Shown here: positions 2,777-24,488 of the stretch, piece after piece | How the letters are laid out: each line of letters begins with the position of its first letter | Numbering within the stretch: the first letter of the stretch is position 1 | From: a virus | Lineage: Duplodnaviria; Heunggongvirae; Uroviricota; Caudoviricetes | Length of the DNA: 26,727 nt | Strand: one strand, 5' to 3' | Virus record (IMG/VR): IMGVR_UViG_2675903433_000037 | Made by a program: the position numbers and the translations under genes | The notes under the pieces: model-generated | The model's database searches: none | The model's input: only the letters and a program-made list of their open reading frames with translations | What the model was told of the DNA's origin: nothing

Positions 2777-6130
<3,354 letters not shown>

Positions 6131-8503: not shown

Positions 8504-8719
8504 TCATCGCTCCTTAAAGACGCCGTTTAACATGCCGATCGCCAGACTTAAATGAGTCGGTGTGAATCCCATTAGCGTTACCGTTTCGCGGTGCTTCTTC
8601 AGTACGCTACGGCAAATGTCATCGACGTTTTTATCCGGAAACTGCTGTCTGGCTTTTTTGATTTCAGAATTAGCCTGACGGGCAATGCTGCGAAGGGCGT
8701 TTTCCTGCTGAGGTGTCAT
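8504..8719 (-). CDS. Hypothetical protein orfX, 71 aa (copy A)
   Basis: [15 protein letters not shown]...GVFKER. The ATG overlaps the stop of a small upstream ORF (ATGA). The track ORF carries a 22-aa N-terminal extension that I reject. Confidence 0.5.
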   Translation of the reverse strand: MTPQQENALRSIARQANSEIKKARQQFPDKNVDDICRSVLKKHRETVTLMGFTPTHLSLAIGMLNGVFKER

Positions 8720-8799
8720 TGAACAAGTCCCATGTCGGCAAGCATAAGCACACAGAATATGAAGCCTGCTGCCAGAAAAATGCATTCTGTTGTTGTCAT
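8716..8799 (-). CDS. Small hydrophobic peptide, 27 aa (copy A)
   Basis: [31 protein letters not shown] overlaps at both ends, with orf63-like upstream and orfX downstream. Too short for the ORF track. Confidence 0.35.
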   Translation of the reverse strand: MTTTECIFLAAGFIFCVLMLADMGLVQ

Positions 8800-8987
8800 G
8801 CCGGGTCTCTCTCGTTTGCTTCTGCTTTCGCCGCCATCATTTCCAGCTTTTGTGAAAGGGATGTGGCTAACGTATGAAATTCTTCGTCTGTTTCTACTGG
8901 TATTGGCACAAACCTGACTCCAATTTGAGCGAGGCTATGTGCCATCCCGATACTCGTTCTTAATTCAACAGGAGATGCTTTGTGCAT
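8796..8987 (-). CDS. Lambda orf63-like protein, 63 aa (copy A)
   Basis: Position and sequence resemble recalled lambda orf63 between exo and ea22. Confidence 0.55.
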   Translation of the reverse strand: MHKASPVELRTSIGMAHSLAQIGVRFVPIPVETDEEFHTLATSLSQKLEMMAAKAEANERDPA

Positions 8988-9148
8988 ACAGCCCCTCGTT
9001 TATTATTTATCTCTTCAGCCAGCCGCTGTGCTTTCAGTGGATTTCGGATAACAGAAAGGCCGGGAAATACCCAGCCTCGCTTTGTAACGGAGTAGACGAA
9101 AGTGATCGTGCCTACCCGGATATTATCGTGAGGATGCTTCATTACCAT
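8960..9148 (-). CDS. Lambda orf60a-like protein, 62 aa (copy A)
   Basis: '[11 protein letters not shown]...' lies immediately downstream of exo, as recalled for lambda orf60a. Confidence 0.55.
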
Positions 9149-9522
9149 TGCTCCCCATATACAAAACCAATTTCAGCCAGTGCCTCGTCCATTTTTTCGA
9201 TGAACTCCGGCACCATCTCGTCAAAACTCGCCATGTACTTTTCATTCCGCTCAATCACGACATAATGCAGGCCTTCACGCTTCATGCGCGGGTCATAGTT
9301 GGCAAAGTACCAGGCATCTTTTCGTGTCACCCACATGCTGTACTGCACCTGGGCCATGTAAGCCGATTTTATTGCCTCGAAACCACCGAGCCGGAATTTC
9401 ATGAAATCCCGGGAGGTAAACGGGCATTTCAGTTCAAGGCCGTTGCCGTCACTGCATAAACCATCGGGAGAGCAGGCGGTGCGCATACTTTCGTCGCGAT
9501 AGATGATCGGGGATTCAGTAAA
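9142..9522 (-). pseudogene. exo: exo 3' fragment (C-terminal ~125 codons), truncated by the IS element
   Basis: Translation equals the C-terminal part of the full exo at 12642-13319. Homology ends at 9522 where IS sequence begins. Confidence 0.8.
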
Positions 9523-9586
9523 TGAGGTAGCCTGAGTTTAACGGACACTCCTTCCTGAAATAGAATGGCATCAGAAGGAGCTAATA

Positions 9587-9889
9587 ATGAGCAGAAAAAC
9601 CCAACGTTACTCTAAAGAGTTCAAAGCCGAAGCTGTCAGAACGGTTCTTGAAAATCAACTTTCGATCAGTGAAGGCGCTTCCCGATTATCTCTTCCTGAA
9701 GGCACTTTAGGACAATGGGTTACCGCCGCCAGAAAAGGGCTCGGTACTCCTGGTTCCCGCACGGTGGCTGAACTGGAATCTGAAATTCTGCAACTGCGTA
9801 AGGCGTTAAATGAAGCTCGCCTTGAGCGAGATATATTAAAAAAAGCAACAGCGTATTTTGCACAGGAGTCGCTGAAAAATACGCGTTAA
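9587..9889 (+). CDS. IS3-family transposase OrfA (HTH), 100 aa
   Basis: 'MSRKTQRYSKEFKAEAV...' with a leucine-zipper-like C-terminus; slippery aaaaaaag at about 9838-9845. Confidence 0.85.
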   Translation: MSRKTQRYSKEFKAEAVRTVLENQLSISEGASRLSLPEGTLGQWVTAARKGLGTPGSRTVAELESEILQLRKALNEARLERDILKKATAYFAQESLKNTR

Positions 9890-9924
9890 TCGAACAATGG
9901 CGACAACAATTTCCCATTGAAGCG

Positions 9925-10743
9925 ATGTGTCAGGTATTTGGTGTATCCAGGAGCGGTTATTACAACTGGGTACAGCATGAACCCTCAGACAGAAAACAAA
10001 GTGATGAGCGGCTAAAACTGGAGATTAAGGTGGCACATATCCGCACTCGCGAAACATATGGAACCCGGCGGCTCCAGACGGAGCTGGCAGAGAATGGCAT
10101 CATCGTTGGTCGTGACCGACTGGCACGTCTTCGTAAGGAGCTAAGGCTACGCTGTAAGCAGAAACGCAAGTTCAGAGCGACTACGAACTCGAACCACAAT
10201 CTGCCAGTTGCGCCAAATCTGCTGAACCAGACGTTCGCTCCTACAGCACCAAATCAGGTCTGGGTGGCGGACCTGACGTATGTTGCCACACAGGAGGGAT
10301 GGTTGTACCTCGCTGGCATCAAAGATGTTTATACGTGCGAAATTGTCGGCTACGCCATGGGAGAGCGCATGACAAAAGAGCTGACAGGTAAAGCTCTGTT
10401 TATGGCGCTCAGGAGCCAGCGCCCACCTGCCGGGCTAATCCACCACTCTGATCGAGGTTCACAGTACTGCGCATACGATTACCGGGTCATACAGGAGCAG
10501 TTTGGTCTGAAAACATCAATGTCGCGTAAAGGTAACTGTTACGACAACGCTCCGATGGAAAGCTTCTGGGGAACGCTGAAAAATGAGAGCCTGAGCCACT
10601 ATCGTTTTAATAACCGGGATGAAGCCATCTCAGTAATACGGGAATACATTGAGATTTTCTACAATCGTCAGCGTCGTCACTCTCGTCTGGGGAATATCTC
10701 CCCGGCAGCCTTCAGGGAAAAATATCATCAGATGGCTGCTTAA
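9925..10743 (+). CDS. IS3-family transposase OrfB (DDE integrase core)
   Basis: 'WVADLTYV...HHSDRGSQY...CYDNAPMESFW' DDE motifs. The native product is probably an OrfAB fusion by -1 frameshift, so the true 5' end lies upstream of this ATG. Confidence 0.85.
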   Translation: MCQVFGVSRSGYYNWVQHEPSDRKQSDERLKLEIKVAHIRTRETYGTRRLQTELAENGIIVGRDRLARLRKELRLRCKQKRKFRATTNSNHNLPVAPNLLNQTFAPTAPNQVWVADLTYVATQEGWLYLAGIKDVYTCEIVGYAMGERMTKELTGKALFMALRSQRPPAGLIHHSDRGSQYCAYDYRVIQEQFGLKTSMSRKGNCYDNAPMESFWGTLKNESLSHYRFNNRDEAISVIREYIEIFYNRQRRHSRLGNISPAAFREKYHQMAA

Positions 10744-10790
10744 AAAAAGAACAAATGGTAGTGTCCGCTATTGCCAGTACACCTCAGTTC

Positions 10791-10979
10791 TTAACTCAAC
10801 AGGAGATGCTTTGTGCATACAGCCCCTCGTTTATTATTTATCTCCTCAGCCAGCCGCTGGGCTTTCAGTGGATTTTGGATAACAGAAAGGCCGGGAAATA
10901 CCCAGCCTCGCTTTGTAACGGAGTAGAAGAAAGTGATCGTGCCTACGCGGATATTATCGTGAGGATGCTTCATCGCCAT
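10791..10979 (-). CDS. orf60a-like protein (copy B, divergent)
   Basis: Same family as 8960-9148 with several substitutions. Confidence 0.5.
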
Positions 10980-11650
10980 TGCTCCCCAAATACAAAACCA
11001 ATTTCAGCCAGTGCCTCGTCCATTTTTTCGATGAACTCCGGCACCATCTCGTCAAAACTCGCCATGTAATTTTCATCCCGCTCAACCACGACATAATGCA
11101 GGCCTTCACGCTTCATTCGTGGGTCATAGTTGGCAAAGTACCAGGCATCTTTTCGCGTCACCCACATGCTGTACTGCACCTGGGCCATGTAAGCCGACTT
11201 TATGGCCTCGAAACCACCGAGCCGGAATTTCATGAAATCCCGGGAGGTAAACGGGCATTTCAGCTCAAGGCCGTTGCCGTCACTGCATAAACCATCGGGA
11301 GAGCAGGCGGTGCGCATACTTTCGTCGCGATAGATGATCGGGGATTCAATAACATTTACGCCGGAAGTGAACTCAAACAGGGTTCTGGCGTCGTTCTCGT
11401 ACTGTTTTCCCCAGGCCAGCGCTTTAGCGTTAACTTCCGGAGCCACACCGGTGCAAACCTCAGCCAGCAGGGTGTGGAAGTAGGATATTTTCATGTCAGG
11501 CCACTTCTTTCCTGATCGGGGCTTTGCTATCACGTTGTGAACTTCTGAAGCGGTGATGACGCCGAGCCGTAATTTGTGCCATGCATCATCCCCCTGTTCG
11601 ACAGCTCTCACGTCGATCCCGGTACGCTGCAGGATAATGTCCGGTGTCAT
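10970..11650 (-). CDS. exo: Lambda-type exonuclease, 226 aa (copy B, divergent allele)
   Basis: Full-length ORF ending GEQWR like recalled lambda Exo; differs from copies A and C at several residues. Confidence 0.85.
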
Positions 11651-12219
11651 GCTGCCACCTTCTGCTCAGTGGCTTTCTGTTTCAGGAATCCAAGAGCTTT
11701 CACTGCTTCGGCCTGTGTCAGTTCTGACGATGCGCGAATGTCGCGGCGAAATATCTGGGAACAGAGCGGCAATAAGTCGTCATCCCATGTTTTATCCAGG
11801 GCGATCAGCAGAGTGTTAATCTCCTGCATGGTTTCATCGTTAACCGGAGTGATGTCGCGTTCTGGCTGACGTTCTGCAGTGTATGCAGTATTTTCGACAA
11901 TGCGCTCGGCTTCATCCTTGTCATAGATACCAGCAAATCCGAAGGCCAGACGGGCACACTGAATCATGGCTTTATGCCGTAACATCCGTTTGGGATGCGA
12001 CTGCCACGGATCCTTAAAGACGCCGTTTAACATGCCGATCGCCAGACTTAAATGAGTCGGTGTGAATCCCATTAGCGTTACCGTTTCGCGGTGCTTCTTC
12101 AGTACGCTACGGCAAATGTCATCGACGTTTTTATCCGGAAACTGCTGTCTGGCTTTTTTGATTTCAGAATTAGCCTGACGGGCAATGCTGCGAAGGGCGT
12201 TTTCCTGCTGAGGTGTCAT
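11647..12219 (-). CDS. Chimeric ORF: orfX N-terminal 69 aa fused in frame to the Bet C-terminal 119 aa
   Basis: Translation is MTPQQ...[15 protein letters not shown]...KVAA. The junction near 12005 joins bet-internal sequence to the orfX 3' end. Confidence 0.6.
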
Positions 12220-12299
12220 TGAACAAGTCCCATGTCGGCAAGCATAAGCACACAGAATATGAAGCCTGCTGCCAGAAAAATGCATTCTGTTGTTGTCAT
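12216..12299 (-). CDS. Small hydrophobic peptide, 27 aa (copy C)
   Basis: Identical to 8716-8799, offset by 3500 bp. Confidence 0.3.
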   Translation of the reverse strand: MTTTECIFLAAGFIFCVLMLADMGLVQ

Positions 12300-12487
12300 G
12301 CCGGGTCTCTCTCGTTTGCTTCTGCTTTCGCCGCCATCATTTCCAGCTTTTGTGAAAGGGATGTGGCTAACGTATGAAATTCTTCGTCTGTTTCTACTGG
12401 TATTGGCACAAACCTGACTCCAATTTGAGCGAGGCTATGTGCCATCCCGATACTCGTTCTTAATTCAACAGGAGATGCTTTGTGCAT
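12296..12487 (-). CDS. orf63-like protein (copy C)
   Basis: Identical to copy A. Confidence 0.55.
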   Translation of the reverse strand: MHKASPVELRTSIGMAHSLAQIGVRFVPIPVETDEEFHTLATSLSQKLEMMAAKAEANERDPA

Positions 12488-12648
12488 ACAGCCCCTCGTT
12501 TATTATTTATCTCTTCAGCCAGCCGCTGTGCTTTCAGTGGATTTCGGATAACAGAAAGGCCGGGAAATACCCAGCCTCGCTTTGTAACGGAGTAGACGAA
12601 AGTGATCGTGCCTACCCGGATATTATCGTGAGGATGCTTCATTACCAT
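12460..12648 (-). CDS. orf60a-like protein (copy C)
   Basis: Identical to copy A. Confidence 0.55.
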
Positions 12649-13319
12649 TGCTCCCCATATACAAAACCAATTTCAGCCAGTGCCTCGTCCATTTTTTCGA
12701 TGAACTCCGGCACCATCTCGTCAAAACTCGCCATGTACTTTTCATTCCGCTCAATCACGACATAATGCAGGCCTTCACGCTTCATGCGCGGGTCATAGTT
12801 GGCAAAGTACCAGGCATCTTTTCGTGTCACCCACATGCTGTACTGCACCTGGGCCATGTAAGCCGATTTTATGGCCTCGAAACCACCGAGCCGGAACTTC
12901 ATGAAATCCCGGGAGGTAAACGGGCATTTCAGCTCAAGGCCGTTGCCGTCACTGCATAAACCATCGGGAGAGCAGGCGGTGCGCATACTTTCGTCGCGAT
13001 AGATGATCGGGGATTCAGTAACATTCACGCCGGAAGTGAACTCAAAGAGGGTTCTGGCGTCGTTCTCGTACTGTTTTCCCCAGGCCAGAGCCTTAGCGTT
13101 AACTTCCGGAGCCACACCGGTGCAAACCTCAGCCAGCAGGGTGTGGAAGTAGGACATTTTCATGTCAGGCCACTTCTTTCCTGATCGGGGTTTTGCTATT
13201 ACGTTGTGAATTTCTGAAGCTGTGATGACGCCGAGCCGTAATTTGTGCCACGCATCATCTCCCTGTTCGACAGCTCTCACGTCGATCCCAGTACGCTGCA
13301 GGATAATGTCCGGTGTCAT
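12642..13319 (-). CDS. exo: Lambda exonuclease (Red-alpha), 225 aa
   Basis: Near-identical to recalled lambda Exo; ends GEQW-stop, one codon shorter than copy B. Overlaps the bet stop. Confidence 0.9.
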
Positions 13320-18686: not shown

Positions 18687-19384
18687 AAAACATCGCCGCA
18701 CAGATGATTAACTTTGACCGTGAGCAGATGCGTCGGATCGCCAACAACATGCCGGAACAGTACGACGAAAAGCCGCAGGTACAGCAGGTAGCGCAGATAA
18801 TCAACGGTGTATTCAGCCAGTTACTGGCAACTTTCCCGGCGAGCCTGGCTAATCGTGACCAGAACGAACTGAACGAAATCCGCCGCCAGTGGGTTCTGGC
18901 TTTCCGGGAAAACGGGATCACCACGATGGAACAGGTGAGCGCCGGAATGCGTGTTGCCCGTCGGCAGAATAGACCATTTCTGCCATCACCCGGGCAGTTT
19001 GTTGCATGGTGCCGGGAAGAAGCATCCGTTAACGCCGGGCTGCCAAACGTCAGCGAGCTGGTTGATATGGTTTACGAGTATTGCCGGAAGCGTGGCCTGT
19101 ATCCGGATGCAGAGTCTTATCCGTGGAAATCGAACGCGCATTACTGGTTGGTTACCAACCTGTACCAGAACATGCGGGCCAATGCGCTGACTGACGCGGA
19201 ATTACGGCGCAAGGCTGCCGATGAACTGACCTGTATGACAGCGCGAATTAACCGTGGTGAGACGATACCTGAACCAGTAAAACAACTTCCTGTTATGGGC
19301 GGTAGACCTCTAAATCGTGCACAGGCTCTGGCGAAGATCGCAGAAATCAAAGCTAAGTTTGGGCTGAAAGGAGCAAGTGTATGA
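18683..19384 (+). CDS. P: Replication protein P (DnaB helicase loader), 233 aa
   Basis: 'MKNIAAQMINFDREQMRRIANNMPEQYDEKPQVQQVAQIINGVFSQLLATFPASLANRDQNE...' is near-identical to recalled lambda P. Confidence 0.95.
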   Translation: MKNIAAQMINFDREQMRRIANNMPEQYDEKPQVQQVAQIINGVFSQLLATFPASLANRDQNELNEIRRQWVLAFRENGITTMEQVSAGMRVARRQNRPFLPSPGQFVAWCREEASVNAGLPNVSELVDMVYEYCRKRGLYPDAESYPWKSNAHYWLVTNLYQNMRANALTDAELRRKAADELTCMTARINRGETIPEPVKQLPVMGGRPLNRAQALAKIAEIKAKFGLKGASV

Positions 19385-19565: not shown

Positions 19566-19590
19566 GGCGGTGTTAGCACCGCCTTTAATT
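19566..19590 (+). terminator. Hairpin terminator downstream of P
   Basis: ggcggtg-ttag-caccgcc followed by tttaatt. Confidence 0.5.
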
Positions 19591-19936
19591 AAAGCTCAGA
19601 AAGCTGTGATAATATTTTTTCTGGAGTGGTTTCGTTGGAAATGCTAAATAATACAGCACCTTTGACTGATTCATCTCTCATTTCAATTTCACATGAATTA
19701 TGGTTGTATGAGATTGCATAATTTTTTAATGTTCTTTCGCTTTGCCACCACACCATATTTGCAAGACTTCCGTTATACGTTCTTATCTCGATTGATCCGG
19801 GCAGGGCTTTCCAGATAACACCTCCTAGCAATGTAAGAGCGGCTGCACCAACATTTTTTGCATGATGGTTAGAACGTTCCATTACCCCTTCAGCATAACG
19901 ATGAAGAATCTCTATGTCAGTCGCTTTGATAGTCAT
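19589..19936 (-). CDS. Hypothetical protein, 115 aa, on the opposite strand to flanking genes
   Basis: ATG-initiated ORF opposing the rightward early operon, with AT-rich upstream DNA. No family recognised. Confidence 0.5.
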   Translation of the reverse strand: MTIKATDIEILHRYAEGVMERSNHHAKNVGAAALTLLGGVIWKALPGSIEIRTYNGSLANMVWWQSERTLKNYAISYNHNSCEIEMRDESVKGAVLFSISNETTPEKILSQLSEL

Positions 19937-20164
19937 GTTATTTCCATGTAATTGCTGTGTGAAACGTAGTGTTAGTTAGGTGTTAGCAGAATATAGCATC
20001 AAAGTCGAAACCGGTAGAAAAAATATTGGTGATTATTTCGCTGCATTTGGAACTGGAACAACAATGATTATTAGCATGATTGCTTTTTCCAGTCATAAGA
20101 ATGAGTCGTGTTAATTTTTTCTATTCAATAGGAAATTATCATGTCATCAGAATATGAACAACTA

Positions 20165-20257
20165 CGGTGACTTCTGCGCTAAACGGGGACGTTTATGCGC
20201 ACATACAATCCAAACTCTCTTCTCCCTCCACAGATGCAGAAATACACCTGCGATTTT
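20165..20257 (+). repeat. Direct repeat R1 (93 bp) carrying an RBS and the 5' end of a ylcH-like small ORF
   Basis: About 94% identical to 22487-22579. Contains ggggacgtttATGcgcacatacaat..., with the ATG at 20195 opening a 46-codon ORF. Confidence 0.8.
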
Positions 20258-20414
20258 TTGCATTCGGTGTTTTTGGCAGCCAAGAACAGGGAGTCTCTGT
20301 TTGTCTGGCGGCTAAAGGTGATATGGAAATCGTGATGTCTTAGCCTAAAGTAGTTGCAACAGTTGGAGCGATTATGGTGGTAGTAGTGATCATCGCGCCC
20401 CCCATATGCAAGGG

Positions 20415-20444
20415 TTGACGACATTATTTATCCGGCGCTATATT
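20415..20444 (+). promoter_or_regulatory. Sigma70-like promoter
   Basis: -35 TTGACG, 18-bp spacer, -10 TATATT. Confidence 0.45.
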
Positions 20445-20504
20445 CTGTGCGTTGCCGCAAAATCGGCACACGGGATTGGCGTCCCGGACATCAAAACGAC
20501 GCAT

Positions 20505-20527
20505 AACCGCGTTCGCGGTTTTTTTAT
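20505..20527 (+). terminator. Intrinsic terminator in the leader upstream of the Bro-N gene
   Basis: aaccgcg-tt-cgcggtt hairpin followed by ttttttt, about 60 nt downstream of the predicted promoter. Confidence 0.55.
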
Positions 20528-20688
20528 GCGCAGTGCACGTCTACACAAAAATTATGGTGGGCTGTGTGAGGGCTTCTTCGGAAGCGCCGGATTTCGTTTT
20601 GACCGGTTACGCCAACCTTGCACAGTCCACCACCAGTCGATTGGCGTCGTCGGTGGTGATAGCTCAAATTCAAAACGAGATTATCGCT

Positions 20689-21297
20689 ATGGTCACTCAG
20701 CTCGCATTCCGCGATGTAAAATTCACTCCTATAAATCACAACAACCAGATCTGGTTTACCAGCAAAGAATTGGCGGCAGCATTAAAATATGCCAGCACCA
20801 AAGCAGTAACCGACATCTACAACAAAAATATTGATGAGTTTACTGACGGAATGTCTCAGGTCGTCGAATCAACGACCTCAGGAAATTATCGTAAGAAGAC
20901 TCGCATTTTCTCCCTCCGTGGCGCCCATCTGATCGCCATGTTCGCCCGCACTCCTGTGGCCAAAGAATTCCGCCGCTGGGTGCTGGATATTCTCGATCGA
21001 GAAATTCAACAATCCCCAATCACAAAACAATTCACTGATAACGAACTTTGCACACTTGCTTGGTTATGGCGGGCAAGTGACACAATGTTAACCGCTTGCC
21101 AAAACGTCACTCCGCTTCTTCAGGTAGCAGAACACCGCGAAGCCGGTCGCTTCACTTCAATCGAACAAGAATATCCCCGGATACTCAATAAGGCACAGGC
21201 AATCCTTGCCAGAGAAACGGCACATGTAAAATTCCGGCCGTGGCAGGATGATAAGTGGAGTCGAGTATTGACGCATTTACGTTCTGAACGGCTGTAA
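20689..21297 (+). CDS. Bro-N domain antirepressor-like protein, 202 aa
   Basis: N-terminus 'FTPINHNNQIWFTSKELAAAL...RIFSLRGAHLIAMFARTPVAKEFRRWVLDIL' fits the Bro-N pattern. The track's 281-aa ORF would span the promoter and terminator. Confidence 0.65.
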   Translation: MVTQLAFRDVKFTPINHNNQIWFTSKELAAALKYASTKAVTDIYNKNIDEFTDGMSQVVESTTSGNYRKKTRIFSLRGAHLIAMFARTPVAKEFRRWVLDILDREIQQSPITKQFTDNELCTLAWLWRASDTMLTACQNVTPLLQVAEHREAGRFTSIEQEYPRILNKAQAILARETAHVKFRPWQDDKWSRVLTHLRSERL

Positions 21298-21596: not shown

Positions 21597-22013
21597 ATGA
21601 ATAAAAACGACCTTGAAGCATTATCTGACACTAGGCTTAATGAGGCCAAATGCTTGCTTGATCATGGCTTTTTTCATGGTGCATATTATCTTTGTGGGTA
21701 TGCAGTTGAATGTGCATTGAAGGCCTGTATTGCCAAGTCATTTTTACAACATGAGTTTCCAAACAAAAAAGTCGTAAATGATTCATATACTCATGATTTG
21801 TCGCAACTTCTCAAAATTGCCAACTTACATCAAATTTTGATTGCTGACGCAAAAAATGATGTTTCGTTGGAGATTAACTGGTCGGTCGTTAAAGACTGGA
21901 GCGAGCAATTTAGATACGACAATAACATAAGTAAAGCTATGGCCGAACAATTGTTTGATGCTGTAGGTGACCAAAATTCTGGAGTTTTGAAATGGGTAAA
22001 AGCACACTGGTAA
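21597..22013 (+). CDS. HEPN-like domain protein, 138 aa
   Basis: 'AYYLCGYAVECALKACIAK', 'YTHDLSQLLKIA' and 'EQFRYDNN' resemble the PF05168-type HEPN helical signature. AT-rich gene. Confidence 0.6.
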   Translation: MNKNDLEALSDTRLNEAKCLLDHGFFHGAYYLCGYAVECALKACIAKSFLQHEFPNKKVVNDSYTHDLSQLLKIANLHQILIADAKNDVSLEINWSVVKDWSEQFRYDNNISKAMAEQLFDAVGDQNSGVLKWVKAHW

Positions 22014-22393
22014 TCGGCAGAGAGTTGACAAAAGATATGGAATTCTCAGGTCAATTTTTGTTAAAAAAACTCAAGTTACAGAATTTAACTATTGATGCTG
22101 CAATGTGGTTTTATTACCCAGATCTATCTTGGAGATATATTTTAGTTATCAGTGACTTCTCAGAACGTGGGCCGGCAGAAATATATAGAAAAATCAGTGA
22201 GATAAATAGAAATAGCATATCAAAAAAGTATAAGCCGATACCATTAGAAGCAATTGAGGCTAAGGGGGATTCAGCTTTTGTTTATAAAATGTTAAAAGGA
22301 TTTGCTAGAGTCAACGATGGTAAAGTTCGCGTTTCTAATTCTATGGTAAATGGTTTAGAAATCGTTGACTGTCTGATCTATGAGTTAAAATAA
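21992..22393 (+). CDS. Hypothetical 133-aa protein overlapping the HEPN-like gene by 22 nt
   Basis: ATG with a ggag RBS 7 nt upstream, inside the 3' end of the HEPN-like ORF. No nucleotidyltransferase motif seen. Confidence 0.5.
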   Translation: MGKSTLVIGRELTKDMEFSGQFLLKKLKLQNLTIDAAMWFYYPDLSWRYILVISDFSERGPAEIYRKISEINRNSISKKYKPIPLEAIEAKGDSAFVYKMLKGFARVNDGKVRVSNSMVNGLEIVDCLIYELK

Positions 22394-22486
22394 GAAATCT
22401 CTTGCTGGGTATCATTATTGTTTAAATGACTTTTGATTTTCAATAATCAACTTGTCATAATTAAGTCACCGGAGTTTGAACTCCTC

Positions 22487-22579
22487 CGGTGACTTCTGCG
22501 CTAAACGGGGACGTTTATGCGCACATACAATCTAAACTATCTTCTCCCGTCACAGATGCAGAAATGCACCTGCGATTTT
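22487..22579 (+). repeat. Direct repeat R2 (93 bp)
   Basis: Second copy of R1, preceded by a perfect 9-bp-stem hairpin (tcaccggag...ctccggtga). Confidence 0.8.
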
Positions 22580-22618
22580 CTTTATCCAGCGTTTGACCTC
22601 TGCGGAGGTGAAGCGTGA
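22517..22618 (+). CDS. ylcH: YlcH-like small protein, 33 aa
   Basis: gggga RBS; [21 protein letters not shown]...; stop overlaps the GTG start of ybcN. Confidence 0.45.
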
Positions 22619-24104: not shown

Positions 24105-24488
24105 ATGCGTGATATTCAGATGGTTCTTGAGCGTTGGGGAGCGTGGGCGGCTAATAATCATGAAGATGTGACCTGGTCGTCCATTGCCGCCGGTTTTAAG
24201 GGATTAATTACTTCAAAAGTAAAATCTCGCCCGCAATGTTGTGACGATGACGCGATGATCATTTGCGGGTGCATGGCCCGTCTGAAAAAGAACAACAGCG
24301 ATTTGCACGATTTATTAGTAGATTATTATGTAGTCGGTATGACATTCATGTCACTGGCAGGTAAGCATTGCTGCTCTGATGGTTATATCGGGAAAAGGTT
24401 ACAGAAGGCTGAGGGCATAATTGAAGGGATGTTAATGGCATTAGATATCCGGTTAGAGATGGATATCGTTGTTAATAACTCTAATTAA
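24105..24488 (+). CDS. quuD: Q-type late antiterminator (QuuD-like), 127 aa
   Basis: '[24 protein letters not shown]...' matches the recalled DLP12 QuuD / 21-82-type Q family; ggag RBS. Confidence 0.85.

Follow-up and report, generated by a model that had tools for sequence, protein, structure and literature searches.

The window, a 26,727-nt stretch of Caudoviricetes DNA (IMG/VR record IMGVR_UViG_2675903433_000037), carries an antirepressor-type gene, ant (20689-21297), which coincides with a RefSeq CDS of the same coordinates and encodes a 202-aa product with Bro-N (1e-13) and P22_AR_C (7.8e-17) Pfam domains. This gene and all the features described below lie on the plus strand. The module to which they belong is located between the replication gene P, which ends at 19384, and ninB/ybcN (22615), and shares the orientation of O, P, ninB and quuD. 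The Q gene quuD is found at about 24105-24488, approximately 3.4 kb downstream of the module. The module is carried by a lambdoid, DLP12-like prophage of E. coli O26/O103. Of 5,426 complete E. coli genomes, 173 contain this prophage at >99% identity; the exact matches listed include O26 and O103 strains, and E2865 and RM10386 are among the carriers. A PADLOC search of the neighbouring genes returned only a weak PDC-M28A match, for a HEPN protein.

RNA elements in the leader of ant

A sigma-70-type promoter spans positions 20415-20444 and consists of a -35 hexamer TTGACG (20415-20420), an 18-nt spacer and a -10 hexamer TATATT (20439-20444). A preliminary description of this DNA had reported these same elements, and both reading of the sequence and a consensus scan agree with it. 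The two hexamers match the consensus at 10 of 12 positions, and promoter-like sites are not enriched in the 18-23 kb interval (7 observed versus 8.9 +/- 3.1 in shuffled sequences). Both hexamers are kept when the locus is aligned with Gifsy-1 and nine relatives, and of the 54 related modules considered below, 33 have the motif at an equivalent offset according to a regular expression search. Also, the P1 record (NC_005856) has an annotated promoter, P1c4, at the corresponding place. Transfer of the Gifsy-1 numbering, by which all nine published mutant positions (PMC4825925) were reproduced, places the predicted transcription start at G20451. Inspection of the promoter by eye revealed no LexA or repressor operator.

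An intrinsic terminator follows at 20505-20525, composed of the hairpin AACCGCGTTCGCGGTT (AACCGC-GTTC-GCGGTT, 20505-20520) and a T7 run (20519-20525). The hairpin starts 61 nt past the -10 hexamer, as expected from the earlier mention of a hairpin and T7 some 60 nt beyond the promoter. Terminator-like sites number 9 in the 18-23 kb interval, versus 4.9 +/- 2.1 in shuffled sequences. Among the related modules, a run of at least five T residues precedes the C4 element in 54 of 54 cases and a GC-rich hairpin does so in 53, with at least six compensatory stems being represented (ACCGC/GCGGT, CACGC/GCGTG, GACGC/GCGTC, CCACG/CGTGG, CCAGC/GCTGG and CACAC/GTGTG). Hairpins were counted by a per-sequence search instead of by RNAalifold on a MAFFT alignment of 46 leaders, which missed the terminator because its stems were aligned out of register.

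The region delimited by these signals is predicted to encode a short RNA of about 75 nt (20451-20526), equivalent to the a1b1 leader of C4 modules. The Rfam family isrK (RF01394) matches it over the full length of the model at 20453-20525 (64.1 bits, GA 50). Two stem-loops (20453-20468 and 20471-20486) were recovered both in the MFE fold and by RNAalifold, which in the 46 leaders supported the first with changes on both sides and also supported the second. The loop of stem-loop 2 contains the a1 site TTGGCGT (20476-20482), which corresponds by position mapping to Gifsy-1 G28/G31, and the b1 site TCAAAACGA (20491-20499) is single-stranded in the short RNA, between stem-loop 2 and the terminator. 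The c4-a1b1 family (RF03163) matches positions 20438-20490 with 40.6 bits, under its GA of 46.7 (E = 4.8e-9 in a 381-nt search); the Gifsy-1 copy clears this threshold with 48.1 bits. The layout of c4-a1b1 is found in the window, with two hairpins, a1 in the loop of the second and b1 immediately 3', both sites being complementary to the neighbouring C4. So is, at the sequence level, that of isrK, with its own promoter and Rho-independent terminator, both kept in relatives, and a co-oriented antirepressor gene 163 nt past the T-run. Judged from its sequence, the promoter-to-terminator unit is a putative small RNA of the IsrK family. The fold of the 77-nt RNA is no better than those of shuffled sequences (z = -1.29).

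The isrK match is adjoined on the same strand by a second one, to the C4 antisense RNA (Rfam RF01695), which covers the model from position 1 to 87 at 20550-20637 (82.5 bits, GA 45); both matches exceed their curated thresholds. The MFE fold of this element comprises a closing stem and two hairpins (-42.4 kcal/mol, z = -5.07, with none of 200 shuffles as good). The mature C4 is predicted to extend from about 20556 to 20634, by comparison with the annotated 77-nt C4 RNA of P1, with which the window C4 has the end sequences UUAU^GGUGGG ... CCACC in common. Two segments of C4 are complementary to sites on either side of it, namely the b' loop ATTTCGTTTTGA (20591-20602), which can pair with b1 and b2, and the single-stranded a' ACGCCAA (20609-20615), which can pair with a1 and a2. 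The a2 target site, TTGGCGT (20641-20647), lies at a fixed offset of +4 to +10 nt past the C4 motif. The b2 target site, TCAAAACGAGAT (20670-20681), overlaps a weak GAG Shine-Dalgarno sequence and stops 8 nt short of the ant ATG; in the fold of the leader it occupies a hairpin loop, with the AUG in the stem of that hairpin. Complementarity is exact between a' and TTGGCGT at both 20476 and 20641, and between the b' loop and TCAAAACGA at both 20491 and 20670.

The duplex energies with C4 are matched by only 5 of 500 dinucleotide shuffles for IsrK and by 8 of 500 for the ant start region. The b'-b2 duplex has an energy of -15.2 kcal/mol (13 of 500 shuffles as good), and the b1-b' duplex alone is unremarkable (157 of 500). 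Single-sequence statistics are thus not decisive for the promoter, the short-RNA fold and the b1-b' duplex, for which reason we have relied on covariance models and comparative data. These results show that the leader holds three RNA elements and not one. The approximately 160 nt noted earlier between the terminator and the Bro-N gene agree with the distance measured from T-run to ATG, and what had been taken for plain leader holds C4 and the a2/b2 sites. The short RNA bearing a1 and b1 is the first part of a known three-part switch made up of a decoy RNA, the C4 antisense RNA and the target site, of which C4 would be the actual repressor part. The locus is an ordinary new copy of this switch and would not surprise specialists in phage immunity RNAs.

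The closing stem of C4 contains, in its 5' strand, a conserved AUG (20554-20556). This AUG is equivalent to the first AUG of Gifsy-1 orf45, corresponding by position mapping to Gifsy-1 A107, and the annotated 5' end of P1 C4 lies between its U and its G. In the window the frame is open into ant, with no stop, allowing for a possible isoform of 247 aa; 23 of 49 modules have this AUG in the reading frame of the gene that follows. A small ORF inside C4 was considered as a conserved protein and rejected, given that variants read the same nucleotides in different frames; the ORFs range from 3 to 45 aa or are fused to ant, and one variant stops after 8 codons. Likewise, the authors who described orf45 noted that its nucleotide sequence is conserved and its peptide is not (PMC4825925). 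Translation of this frame may still matter.

Covariation of the pairing sites in related modules

In order to compare pairing specificities, 54 related modules with distinct (a',b') pairs were assembled, representing 19 a' types and 42 b' types. In this set a'/a1/a2 and b'/b1/b2 change together, with the complements kept at fixed offsets. The longest exact complement has a median of 7-8.5 nt within a module and of 4-5 nt between non-self partners. The b2 site covaries most strongly with b', the longest exact complement of b2 to its own b' having a median of 8.5 nt versus 5 nt for non-self. The 54 modules are not phylogenetically independent, so that the independent events are fewer than these counts suggest.

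The a and b types have reassorted independently of each other; three different a types are found with the b type GCATACGG, and a1 and a2 track a' each time. Among the close relatives of the window's ant gene, four b types occur in which b1, b' and b2 have changed jointly while a remained fixed. The 19 a and 42 b types constitute a catalogue of natural two-site specificity variants that behave like an orthogonal set.

The genes following 49 C4 modules nearly all encode antirepressor-type domains (Phage_pRha in 21, ORF6N in 10, Bro-N in 8, P22_AR_C in 6, Derepression in 3, P22_AR_N in 1 and AntA in 1). Relatives of Ant at 76-100% identity are accompanied by isrK and C4, and among 19 representative loci whose protein is at most 71% identical, 18 had no Rfam match of any kind. 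Since the leader is absent from nearly all of the more distant relatives, it constitutes a separable module and not a feature of the Ant family.

That promoter-like and terminator-like motifs merely co-occur here by chance and without function, as could be argued from site counts within or near the shuffle expectation in 18-23 kb, is refuted by two covariance-model matches above curated thresholds, by the three-way covariation, by the conserved positions and compensatory changes of the elements in 54 modules, terminator stems included, and by the experimental precedent in Gifsy-1 (PMC4825925). It is homology and conservation, and not simple scans alone, that place the feature above chance.

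Relationship to Gifsy-1, P1/P7 and other phage RNAs

In Gifsy-1 of Salmonella Typhimurium, two forms of IsrK exist, one short and terminated, the other a readthrough mRNA, isrK-orf45-anrP (Hershko-Shalev et al. 2016, PMC4825925). The isrK promoter drives transcription of anrP into an mRNA that is translationally silent; provided in trans, IsrK increases antirepressor translation about 139-fold and also raises a transcriptional fusion 8-fold (PMC4825925). This activation in trans and the binding of Hfq by IsrK have been shown only for Gifsy-1 (PMC4825925). The Gifsy-1 mutant pairs G28A/C162U and G31A/C159U are compensatory (PMC4825925), and by position mapping G28/C162 and G31/C159 would be a1:a' pairs, identical in sequence to those of the window.

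Both loci contain, in the same order, a promoter (TTGAC-18-TATATT), two 5' hairpins, a terminator, a C4-like element with the conserved AAUUAUGGUGGG, a2, b2 and an antirepressor gene, and their a1, a' and a2 sequences are identical. They differ in the specificity of b1/b'/b2, which is TCAAAACGA in the window and (A)TCACCG in Gifsy-1, in their location, the Gifsy-1 isrK lying directly after a Q-like gene and the window module between P and ninB, and in their antirepressor proteins, only 19% identical. Also, orf45 ends in an AUGA that overlaps the anrP start, whereas the window frame enters ant without a stop, and therefore the published Gifsy-1 coupling mechanism cannot apply unchanged in the window. 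The published model has a different emphasis from the one proposed below. An Rfam search detected no isrJ homologue downstream of the window module.

The immI region of P1/P7 comprises the c4 antisense RNA, a1/b1, a2/b2, icd and ant (Citron and Schuster 1990, as related in PMC2864571), and the P1 record NC_005856 annotates the same order as that of the window, with the P1c4 promoter followed by a1, b1, c4, a2 and b2. Resembling P1/P7, the window has an antisense RNA upstream of its own target, with which it would be co-transcribed, a predicted two-site (a', b') recognition of a2/b2 at the ribosome-binding region and a duplicate a1/b1 target upstream, within a two-hairpin leader. The promoter-to-a1 spacing of 32-33 nt, the presence of a hairpin and U-run between b1 and c4, and the conserved UUAUGGUGGG and CCACC ends of C4 are shared with P1. 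In contrast, the P1 hairpin/U-run is weaker (T5, long loop) and its carrier is a plasmid prophage instead of a lambdoid one. In P1, icd intervenes between b2 and ant, and b2 lies over the icd ribosome-binding site; in the window b2 directly precedes ant, with no separate ORF for an icd-type small gene between b2 and the ant ATG, the sole upstream frame being the one that starts in C4 and is fused to ant. Expression of P1 ant depends on the translation of icd, and P1 shows Rho-dependent polarity; neither Rho-dependent polarity nor icd is evident at the window locus. Also, no second, C1-controlled promoter similar to P2c4 of P1 was seen there.

More distant parallels exist in other phages. In the immunity region of P4 (seqA - CI RNA - seqC), as proposed for the window, a single transcript has a processed RNA with complementary sites on either side of it, and Hershko-Shalev et al. 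cited P4 as the structural analogue of IsrK (PMC4825925). However, P4 CI acts by terminating the transcription of replication genes prematurely (PMC4825925), whereas a translational block of an antirepressor is proposed for the window. Lambda 6S and StxS, short RNAs made at late promoters under Q antitermination, resemble the window element in having a constitutive promoter and an intrinsic terminator within about 80 nt, an arrangement associated with an abundant short RNA in lysogens (PMC7547250). In contrast to these, the window element lies away from Q and the late promoter, its short RNA is predicted to pair with a cognate antisense RNA of its own operon and control, by homology, would be mainly translational. 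The preliminary description had drawn an analogy with short terminated transcripts at lambdoid late promoters. The position of the module, between P and ninB and upstream of quuD, does not fit it, as the module is neither directly downstream of Q nor the first element of the late (lysis) operon. The same promoter/a1b1/hairpin-U-run/c4 layout occurs in P1.

Proposed switch and alternative explanations

We consider it probable, at roughly 0.7, that the locus is an RNA switch of the P1/P7 immI and Gifsy-1 IsrK type that would keep the prophage antirepressor off, as judged from sequence and by analogy. Transcription from the promoter at 20415-20444 would begin at about G20451, and most transcripts would end at the hairpin and T7 (20505-20525), yielding an IsrK-like RNA of approximately 75 nt with a1 in a hairpin loop and b1 single-stranded. 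Some readthrough transcripts would carry C4 (20550-20637), the a2/b2 sites and the antirepressor gene, and C4 would probably be excised from them by RNase P, as in P1. Pairing of the a' strand and b' loop of C4 with a2 and b2 would then cover the ribosome-binding region of ant, leaving Ant untranslated and the prophage repressed. When abundant, the short RNA, acting as a target mimic, would bind either free C4 or the part of the readthrough mRNA that contains C4, and so free the translation start; the Ant made after this relief would inactivate a phage repressor.

The terminated short RNA, the readthrough mRNA and the relief by the short RNA have been shown in Gifsy-1 (PMC4825925), and the C4 block of target translation in P1/P7. 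We infer that the steps from termination to Ant action operate at the window locus, with C4 acting in cis or in trans and a phage repressor as the target of Ant. The suggestion made in the preliminary description, that a short regulatory RNA accompanied by some readthrough controls the antirepressor, was right by homology to IsrK of Gifsy-1.

For P1, competition of a1/b1 with a2/b2 for the c4 RNA has already been proposed, as reported in Additional file 1 of Weinberg 2010. A more speculative extension, to which we lend limited credence, is that the terminated a1b1 leader (IsrK) could be the universal dedicated decoy, or "anti-antisense", RNA of all C4-type modules, P1 included, with terminator efficiency setting the ratio of decoy to repressor and hence the induction threshold. 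As a second layer, C4 maturation and translation from the AUG of the C4 stem might be alternative fates of each readthrough transcript, mutually exclusive because RNase P processing would split this AUG. Where the AUG is in frame with ant, as in the window and about half of the modules, its translation would therefore give an N-terminally extended antirepressor. An explicit statement that IsrK is c4-a1b1 was not found in the literature searched, in which the two are treated as distinct systems and a single, unrelated paper names both C4 antisense RNA and IsrK; this absence is no proof that the link has never been published. A 2025 review lists IsrK and C4 separately, and the comparison drawn in the IsrK paper is with P4 and not P1 (PMC4825925). 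The exact position mapping presented here links both literatures.

Control could instead reside mainly in regulated readthrough, exerted by a phage antiterminator (N on PR transcripts, or Q) or by attenuation, the short RNA being a by-product similar to lambda 6S RNA. Being part of the early rightward operon and oriented like O, P, ninB and quuD, the module would be crossed by antiterminated transcription coming from upstream. Moreover, the Gifsy-1 isrK directly follows a Q-like gene, IsrK is produced from an antitermination-regulated promoter according to Sy et al. 2020 (PMC7547250), and the 8-fold increase of the transcriptional fusion in Gifsy-1 points in the same direction (PMC4825925). 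However, promoter, a1b1, terminator and C4 move as one module into different genome positions (from P to ninB in the window, following Q in Gifsy-1, immI in P1), and the target-mimic sequences of the short RNA covary with C4, which would be needless in a by-product. In Gifsy-1 the main effect is translational (139-fold versus 8-fold) and needs no added antiterminator (PMC4825925). As for the attenuation contemplated in the preliminary description, neither a leader peptide upstream of the terminator nor an alternative antiterminator helix competing with the hairpin was seen. We thus regard control by readthrough as unlikely.

Similarly improbable is a feedback as in P4, where CI acts with seqA/seqC, by which C4 bound to nascent a1/b1 would alter termination and cause transcriptional autoregulation of C4 and ant. 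Such feedback is suggested by the proximity of b1 (20491-20499) to the extended terminator stem, which starts at about 20500, by the labelling of a1/b1 as putative C4 target sites in the P1 record and by Hershko-Shalev et al., who raised this possibility for STnc1160 (PMC4825925). Yet co-expression of Gifsy-1 STnc1160/orf45 with IsrK made IsrK toxicity stronger, not weaker (PMC4825925), and feedback on termination leaves unexplained both the overlap of b2 with the ribosome-binding region and its strongest covariation with b'. It could coexist with the translational switch as a secondary loop.

It is much less plausible that the short RNA serves chiefly as an Hfq-dependent, trans-acting sRNA on host core-genome mRNAs and that its position before ant is incidental. 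The Rfam name of the family ("isrK Hfq binding RNA"), the Rho-independent terminator and long U tail at the end of the RNA, as typically found in sRNAs of the Hfq class, and the action of other EHEC prophage sRNAs on core targets (review PMC12197685) speak in favor of such a role. However, the exposed a1 and b1 are hypervariable from one module to the next and in every case match the C4 beside them, which favors a cognate partner internal to the module over a conserved host target, and the phenotypes of Gifsy-1 IsrK require an intact isrK locus (PMC4825925). The translational switch remains the reading that we favor.

The possible reach of such a switch extends beyond a single prophage. Prophage induction by antirepressors can occur without the SOS pathway and can extend to co-resident prophages, and an RNA switch gating them therefore bears on induction in multi-prophage strains. 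C4-like elements, which RefSeq leaves unannotated, occur in at least 1,848 of the 5,426 complete E. coli genomes, with up to six per genome.

RNA elements in the antirepressor leader

The preliminary description reported a promoter, a hairpin with a T7 tract and then a Bro-N gene, all of which are present on the plus strand. A consensus scan recovers a promoter-like site (TTGACG 20415-20420, 18-nt spacer, TATATT 20439-20444), followed 61 nt downstream by a terminator (hairpin AACCGCGTTCGCGGTT, 20505-20520, running into T7 at 20519-20525) and, 163 nt farther on, by the ATG of the antirepressor gene ant (20689). The 202-aa product carries Bro-N plus P22_AR_C domains, and the same CDS is found in RefSeq for identical genomes. 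Judged by simple consensus counting alone, the motifs are not beyond chance, promoter-like sites not being enriched (7 versus 8.9 ± 3.1 in shuffles) and terminator-like sites numbering 9 versus 4.9 ± 2.1; the fold of the 77-nt RNA is also no better than that of shuffled sequence (z = -1.29). Evidence of function accordingly comes from homology and conservation.

When the window was searched in full against Rfam, exactly two matches passed the curated thresholds, neighbouring and both on the plus strand. The first, isrK (RF01394, 20453-20525; 64.1 bits, threshold 50), corresponds to the promoter-to-terminator unit described previously. The second, C4 antisense RNA (RF01695, 20550-20637; 82.5 bits, threshold 45), occupies part of the stretch after the terminator that had been taken for plain leader. 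The C4 segment folds into the closing stem and two hairpins of the family (-42.4 kcal/mol, z = -5.07), an energy matched by 0/200 shuffles. In a permissive scan the c4-a1b1 model (RF03163, "a1, b1 targets of C4 antisense RNA") was also placed at 20438-20490, with 40.6 bits, under its threshold of 46.7. RefSeq has no RNA gene at this locus.

Two elements of C4, b' in the loop of hairpin 2 (ATTTCGTTTTGA, 20591-20602) and a' in the single strand 3' of that hairpin (ACGCCAA, 20609-20615), each have two complements on the same strand. Upstream, a1 (TTGGCGT, 20476-20482) lies in the loop of the second hairpin of the short RNA and b1 (TCAAAACGA, 20491-20499) in the single-stranded stretch ahead of the terminator. 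Downstream, a2 (TTGGCGT, 20641-20647) is followed by b2 (TCAAAACGAGAT, 20670-20681), which stops 8 nt short of the ant ATG and spans the weak GAG Shine-Dalgarno of the gene; when the whole leader is folded, b2 falls in a hairpin loop and the AUG of ant in the stem of that hairpin. Duplexes of the b'-a' segment with the short RNA (-31.4 kcal/mol) and with the ant start region (-29.1 kcal/mol) were equalled by 5/500 and 8/500 dinucleotide shuffles, respectively; taken alone, these energies are suggestive of pairing, not conclusive.

Counterparts in phage P1 and Gifsy-1

The order of elements in the phage P1 record is that of the window: promoter P1c4, a1, b1, a 77-nt C4 RNA, a2, b2, icd and ant. 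In both loci the leader has two hairpins, the second carrying a1 in its loop; 32-33 nt separate the -10 hexamer from a1, b1 and c4 are divided by a hairpin with a U-run, and the C4 ends have the form UUAUGGUGGG ... CCACC. They differ in that icd separates b2 from ant in P1, whereas the window has no icd-like gene and b2 directly precedes ant. For P1/P7, the established model is translational repression by c4 via a2/b2 (P1 annotation; review PMC12197685), and competition of a1/b1 with a2/b2 for c4 RNA was proposed earlier for P1 (Citron & Schuster 1990, as related in Additional file 1 of Weinberg et al. 2010). The P1 hairpin (ACCGCA...TGCGGT then ATTTTTGTG, 3283-3317) occupies the position of the IsrK terminator, so that the P1 a1b1 leader may give rise to a short terminated RNA too.

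On the isrK-orf45-anrP locus of the Salmonella Typhimurium prophage Gifsy-1, Rfam matches isrK, c4-a1b1 and C4, the first two overlapping. With the IsrK +1 chosen so that G28 and G31 are the Gs of TTGGCGT, all published mutant positions carry the stated base (C18, G28, G31, A107, U120, C159, C162, G173, C175). By this mapping, the compensatory pairs G28:C162 and G31:C159 (Hershko-Shalev et al., PMC4825925) are a1:a' pairs, the start of "orf45" is the conserved AUG in the C4 closing stem, and the stable processed RNA STnc1160 overlaps the C4 element and is probably the C4 homologue. The same numbering, transferred to the window, places the transcription start at G20451, 7 nt past the -10 hexamer. 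In Gifsy-1, antirepressor transcription is driven by the isrK promoter (280 versus 3 Miller units) and the mRNA is silent in translation; IsrK supplied in trans raises translation 139-fold and transcription 8-fold, an action requiring the a1 bases, and AnrP induces the prophage (PMC4825925). Lysogens contain IsrK and STnc1160 in abundance in every condition tested (PMC7067206).

Variation among modules and the proposed switch

Related loci were collected from viral contigs by two routes, one starting from Ant protein relatives and the other from a pattern matching the conserved C4 ends. The 111 parsable distinct leader sequences comprise 19 a' and 42 b' types in 54 distinct combinations; as the modules are mutually related, counts across them overstate the number of independent events. 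Most modules have one complement of a' about 78 nt ahead of the start of the C4 motif and another 4-10 nt past its end, and complements of b' usually lie about 62 nt before and about 31-42 nt after the motif. The longest exact self complements have medians of 7 (a1), 7 (a2), 7 (b1) and 8.5 nt (b2), versus 4-5 nt when elements of one module are paired with the flanks of another. Among close relatives of the window's ant, a is invariant and b1, b' and b2 vary jointly among four types (TCAAAACGA, CTACTCAA, GGTAATC and TCACCG). Three different a types are found combined with the b type GCATACGG, a1/a2 tracking a' each time; such reassortment argues against pure inheritance. In one viral contig (IMGVR_UViG_2671181028_000005, ~9290-11215), three complete modules stand in tandem, 656 nt apart; their a'/b' specificities all differ, and each has an a1b1 leader and a terminator of its own and is followed by a ~120-aa ORF.

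A run of at least five Ts precedes C4 in 54/54 modules (most often T6-7, some 33 nt ahead of the motif), and in 53 of them follows a GC-rich hairpin whose stems vary by compensatory changes. RNAalifold supports two 5' leader hairpins, stem-loop 1 with many both-sided pair changes. Domains of the genes after 49 modules are Phage_pRha (21), ORF6N (10), Bro-N (8), P22_AR_C (6), Derepression (3), P22_AR_N (1) and AntA (1), the predicted products being antirepressor-type proteins from several unrelated families.

The best-supported reading of the window locus is a three-part RNA switch, in which the terminator would split transcription between a decoy and a repressor-plus-target. C4 from readthrough transcripts would block the ribosome-binding region of ant through a'/a2 and b'/b2 pairing, and the terminated short RNA, a copy of the target, would bind C4, whether as a free RNA or while it forms a domain of the readthrough mRNA, and lift the block. 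C4 might in addition feed back on the terminator in a P4-like secondary loop, given that b1 adjoins the terminator, although one Gifsy-1 experiment counts against it. Antitermination or attenuation as the main control, one of the options raised in the preliminary description, is not supported by location, since the module lies between P and ninB, ~3.4 kb upstream of quuD, and is present in P1 too; it would also leave the covariation of the short RNA with C4 unexplained, yet N-antiterminated transcription from PR would cross the module and could contribute. A host-directed sRNA is unlikely as the main role of the short RNA because the sequences it exposes are hypervariable and in every case match the C4 next to them. 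Chance co-occurrence of the motifs is excluded.

The reading frame that begins at the AUG of the C4 closing stem (20554) meets no stop ahead of ant and would yield a 247-aa product. The small ORF of Gifsy-1 instead overlaps the antirepressor start (AUGA), and its termination-reinitiation coupling therefore cannot work unchanged here. The frame runs into the downstream antirepressor gene in 23/49 modules from viral contigs and ends before it in 20, the overlap being found in Gifsy-1 only. The in-frame fraction exceeds the chance expectation of about one third or less, in modules that are related, and in some database records the C4 region is covered by a CDS ("Rha protein", "putative antirepressor"). 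Because variants read the same nucleotides in different frames, there is no conserved peptide, a lack of conservation also remarked on by the original Gifsy-1 authors (PMC4825925). In a close relative (L025, 1369-1454), a CTTCGG to CTTAGG change in the hairpin-1 loop stops the small ORF after 8 codons and the C4 match still scores 74.2 bits, which is consistent with selection on the RNA and not the peptide. The 5' end of mature P1 C4 falls between the U and G of the equivalent AUG, so that C4 processing and translation from this AUG would be mutually exclusive.

The window copy belongs to a known switch type, its own traits being the b specificity and the in-frame upstream AUG. Rfam-based lists for O157:H7 EDL933 already have isrK (twice) and C4 (PMC5331693); what is added here is that the IsrK and P1 c4-a1b1 descriptions are exactly equivalent and that the terminator is near-universal.

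Occurrence and gene neighbourhood

The window is a DLP12-like lambdoid prophage (S24 repressor, O, P, ybcN/ninB, ninE, ybcO, rusA, ylcG, quuD) found at ≥99% identity in 173 of 5,426 complete E. coli genomes, with O26 and O103 strains among the exact matches listed. C4-like sequences occur in at least 1,848 of these genomes, in up to six places per genome and at 15 plasmid places; in RefSeq they are unannotated or else covered by an "ash family protein" CDS. E2865, a genome matching the window, carries a second copy.

Directly after ant, on the plus strand, lies a cassette of two overlapping genes, a HEPN-domain protein (21597-22013; Pfam 3e-06, weak PADLOC PDC-M28A match, 1.8e-07) and a 133-aa ORF without family match (21992-22393), which could be a toxin-antitoxin or defence pair. 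The entire block from IsrK to the 133-aa ORF is flanked by a 162-nt direct repeat (20111-20272 and 22433-22594; 81% identical, 2,322 nt apart), each copy with a terminator-like hairpin and T-run (20235-20252; 22557-22574) and the start of the same small ORF. Such an arrangement resembles the trace of a recombination event that placed a module between P and ninB. A minus-strand ORF of 115 aa (19589-19936), located between P and the module, matches the integron-cassette family VCH_CASS14 (5.7e-20). Duplicated ORFs in the left half of the window correspond to large direct repeats, comprising an exact duplication of 300 nt or more (8511-8810 / 12011-12310, 3,500 nt apart) and a three-copy 300-nt family with 96% identity (8956-9255 / 10787-11086 / 12456-12755).
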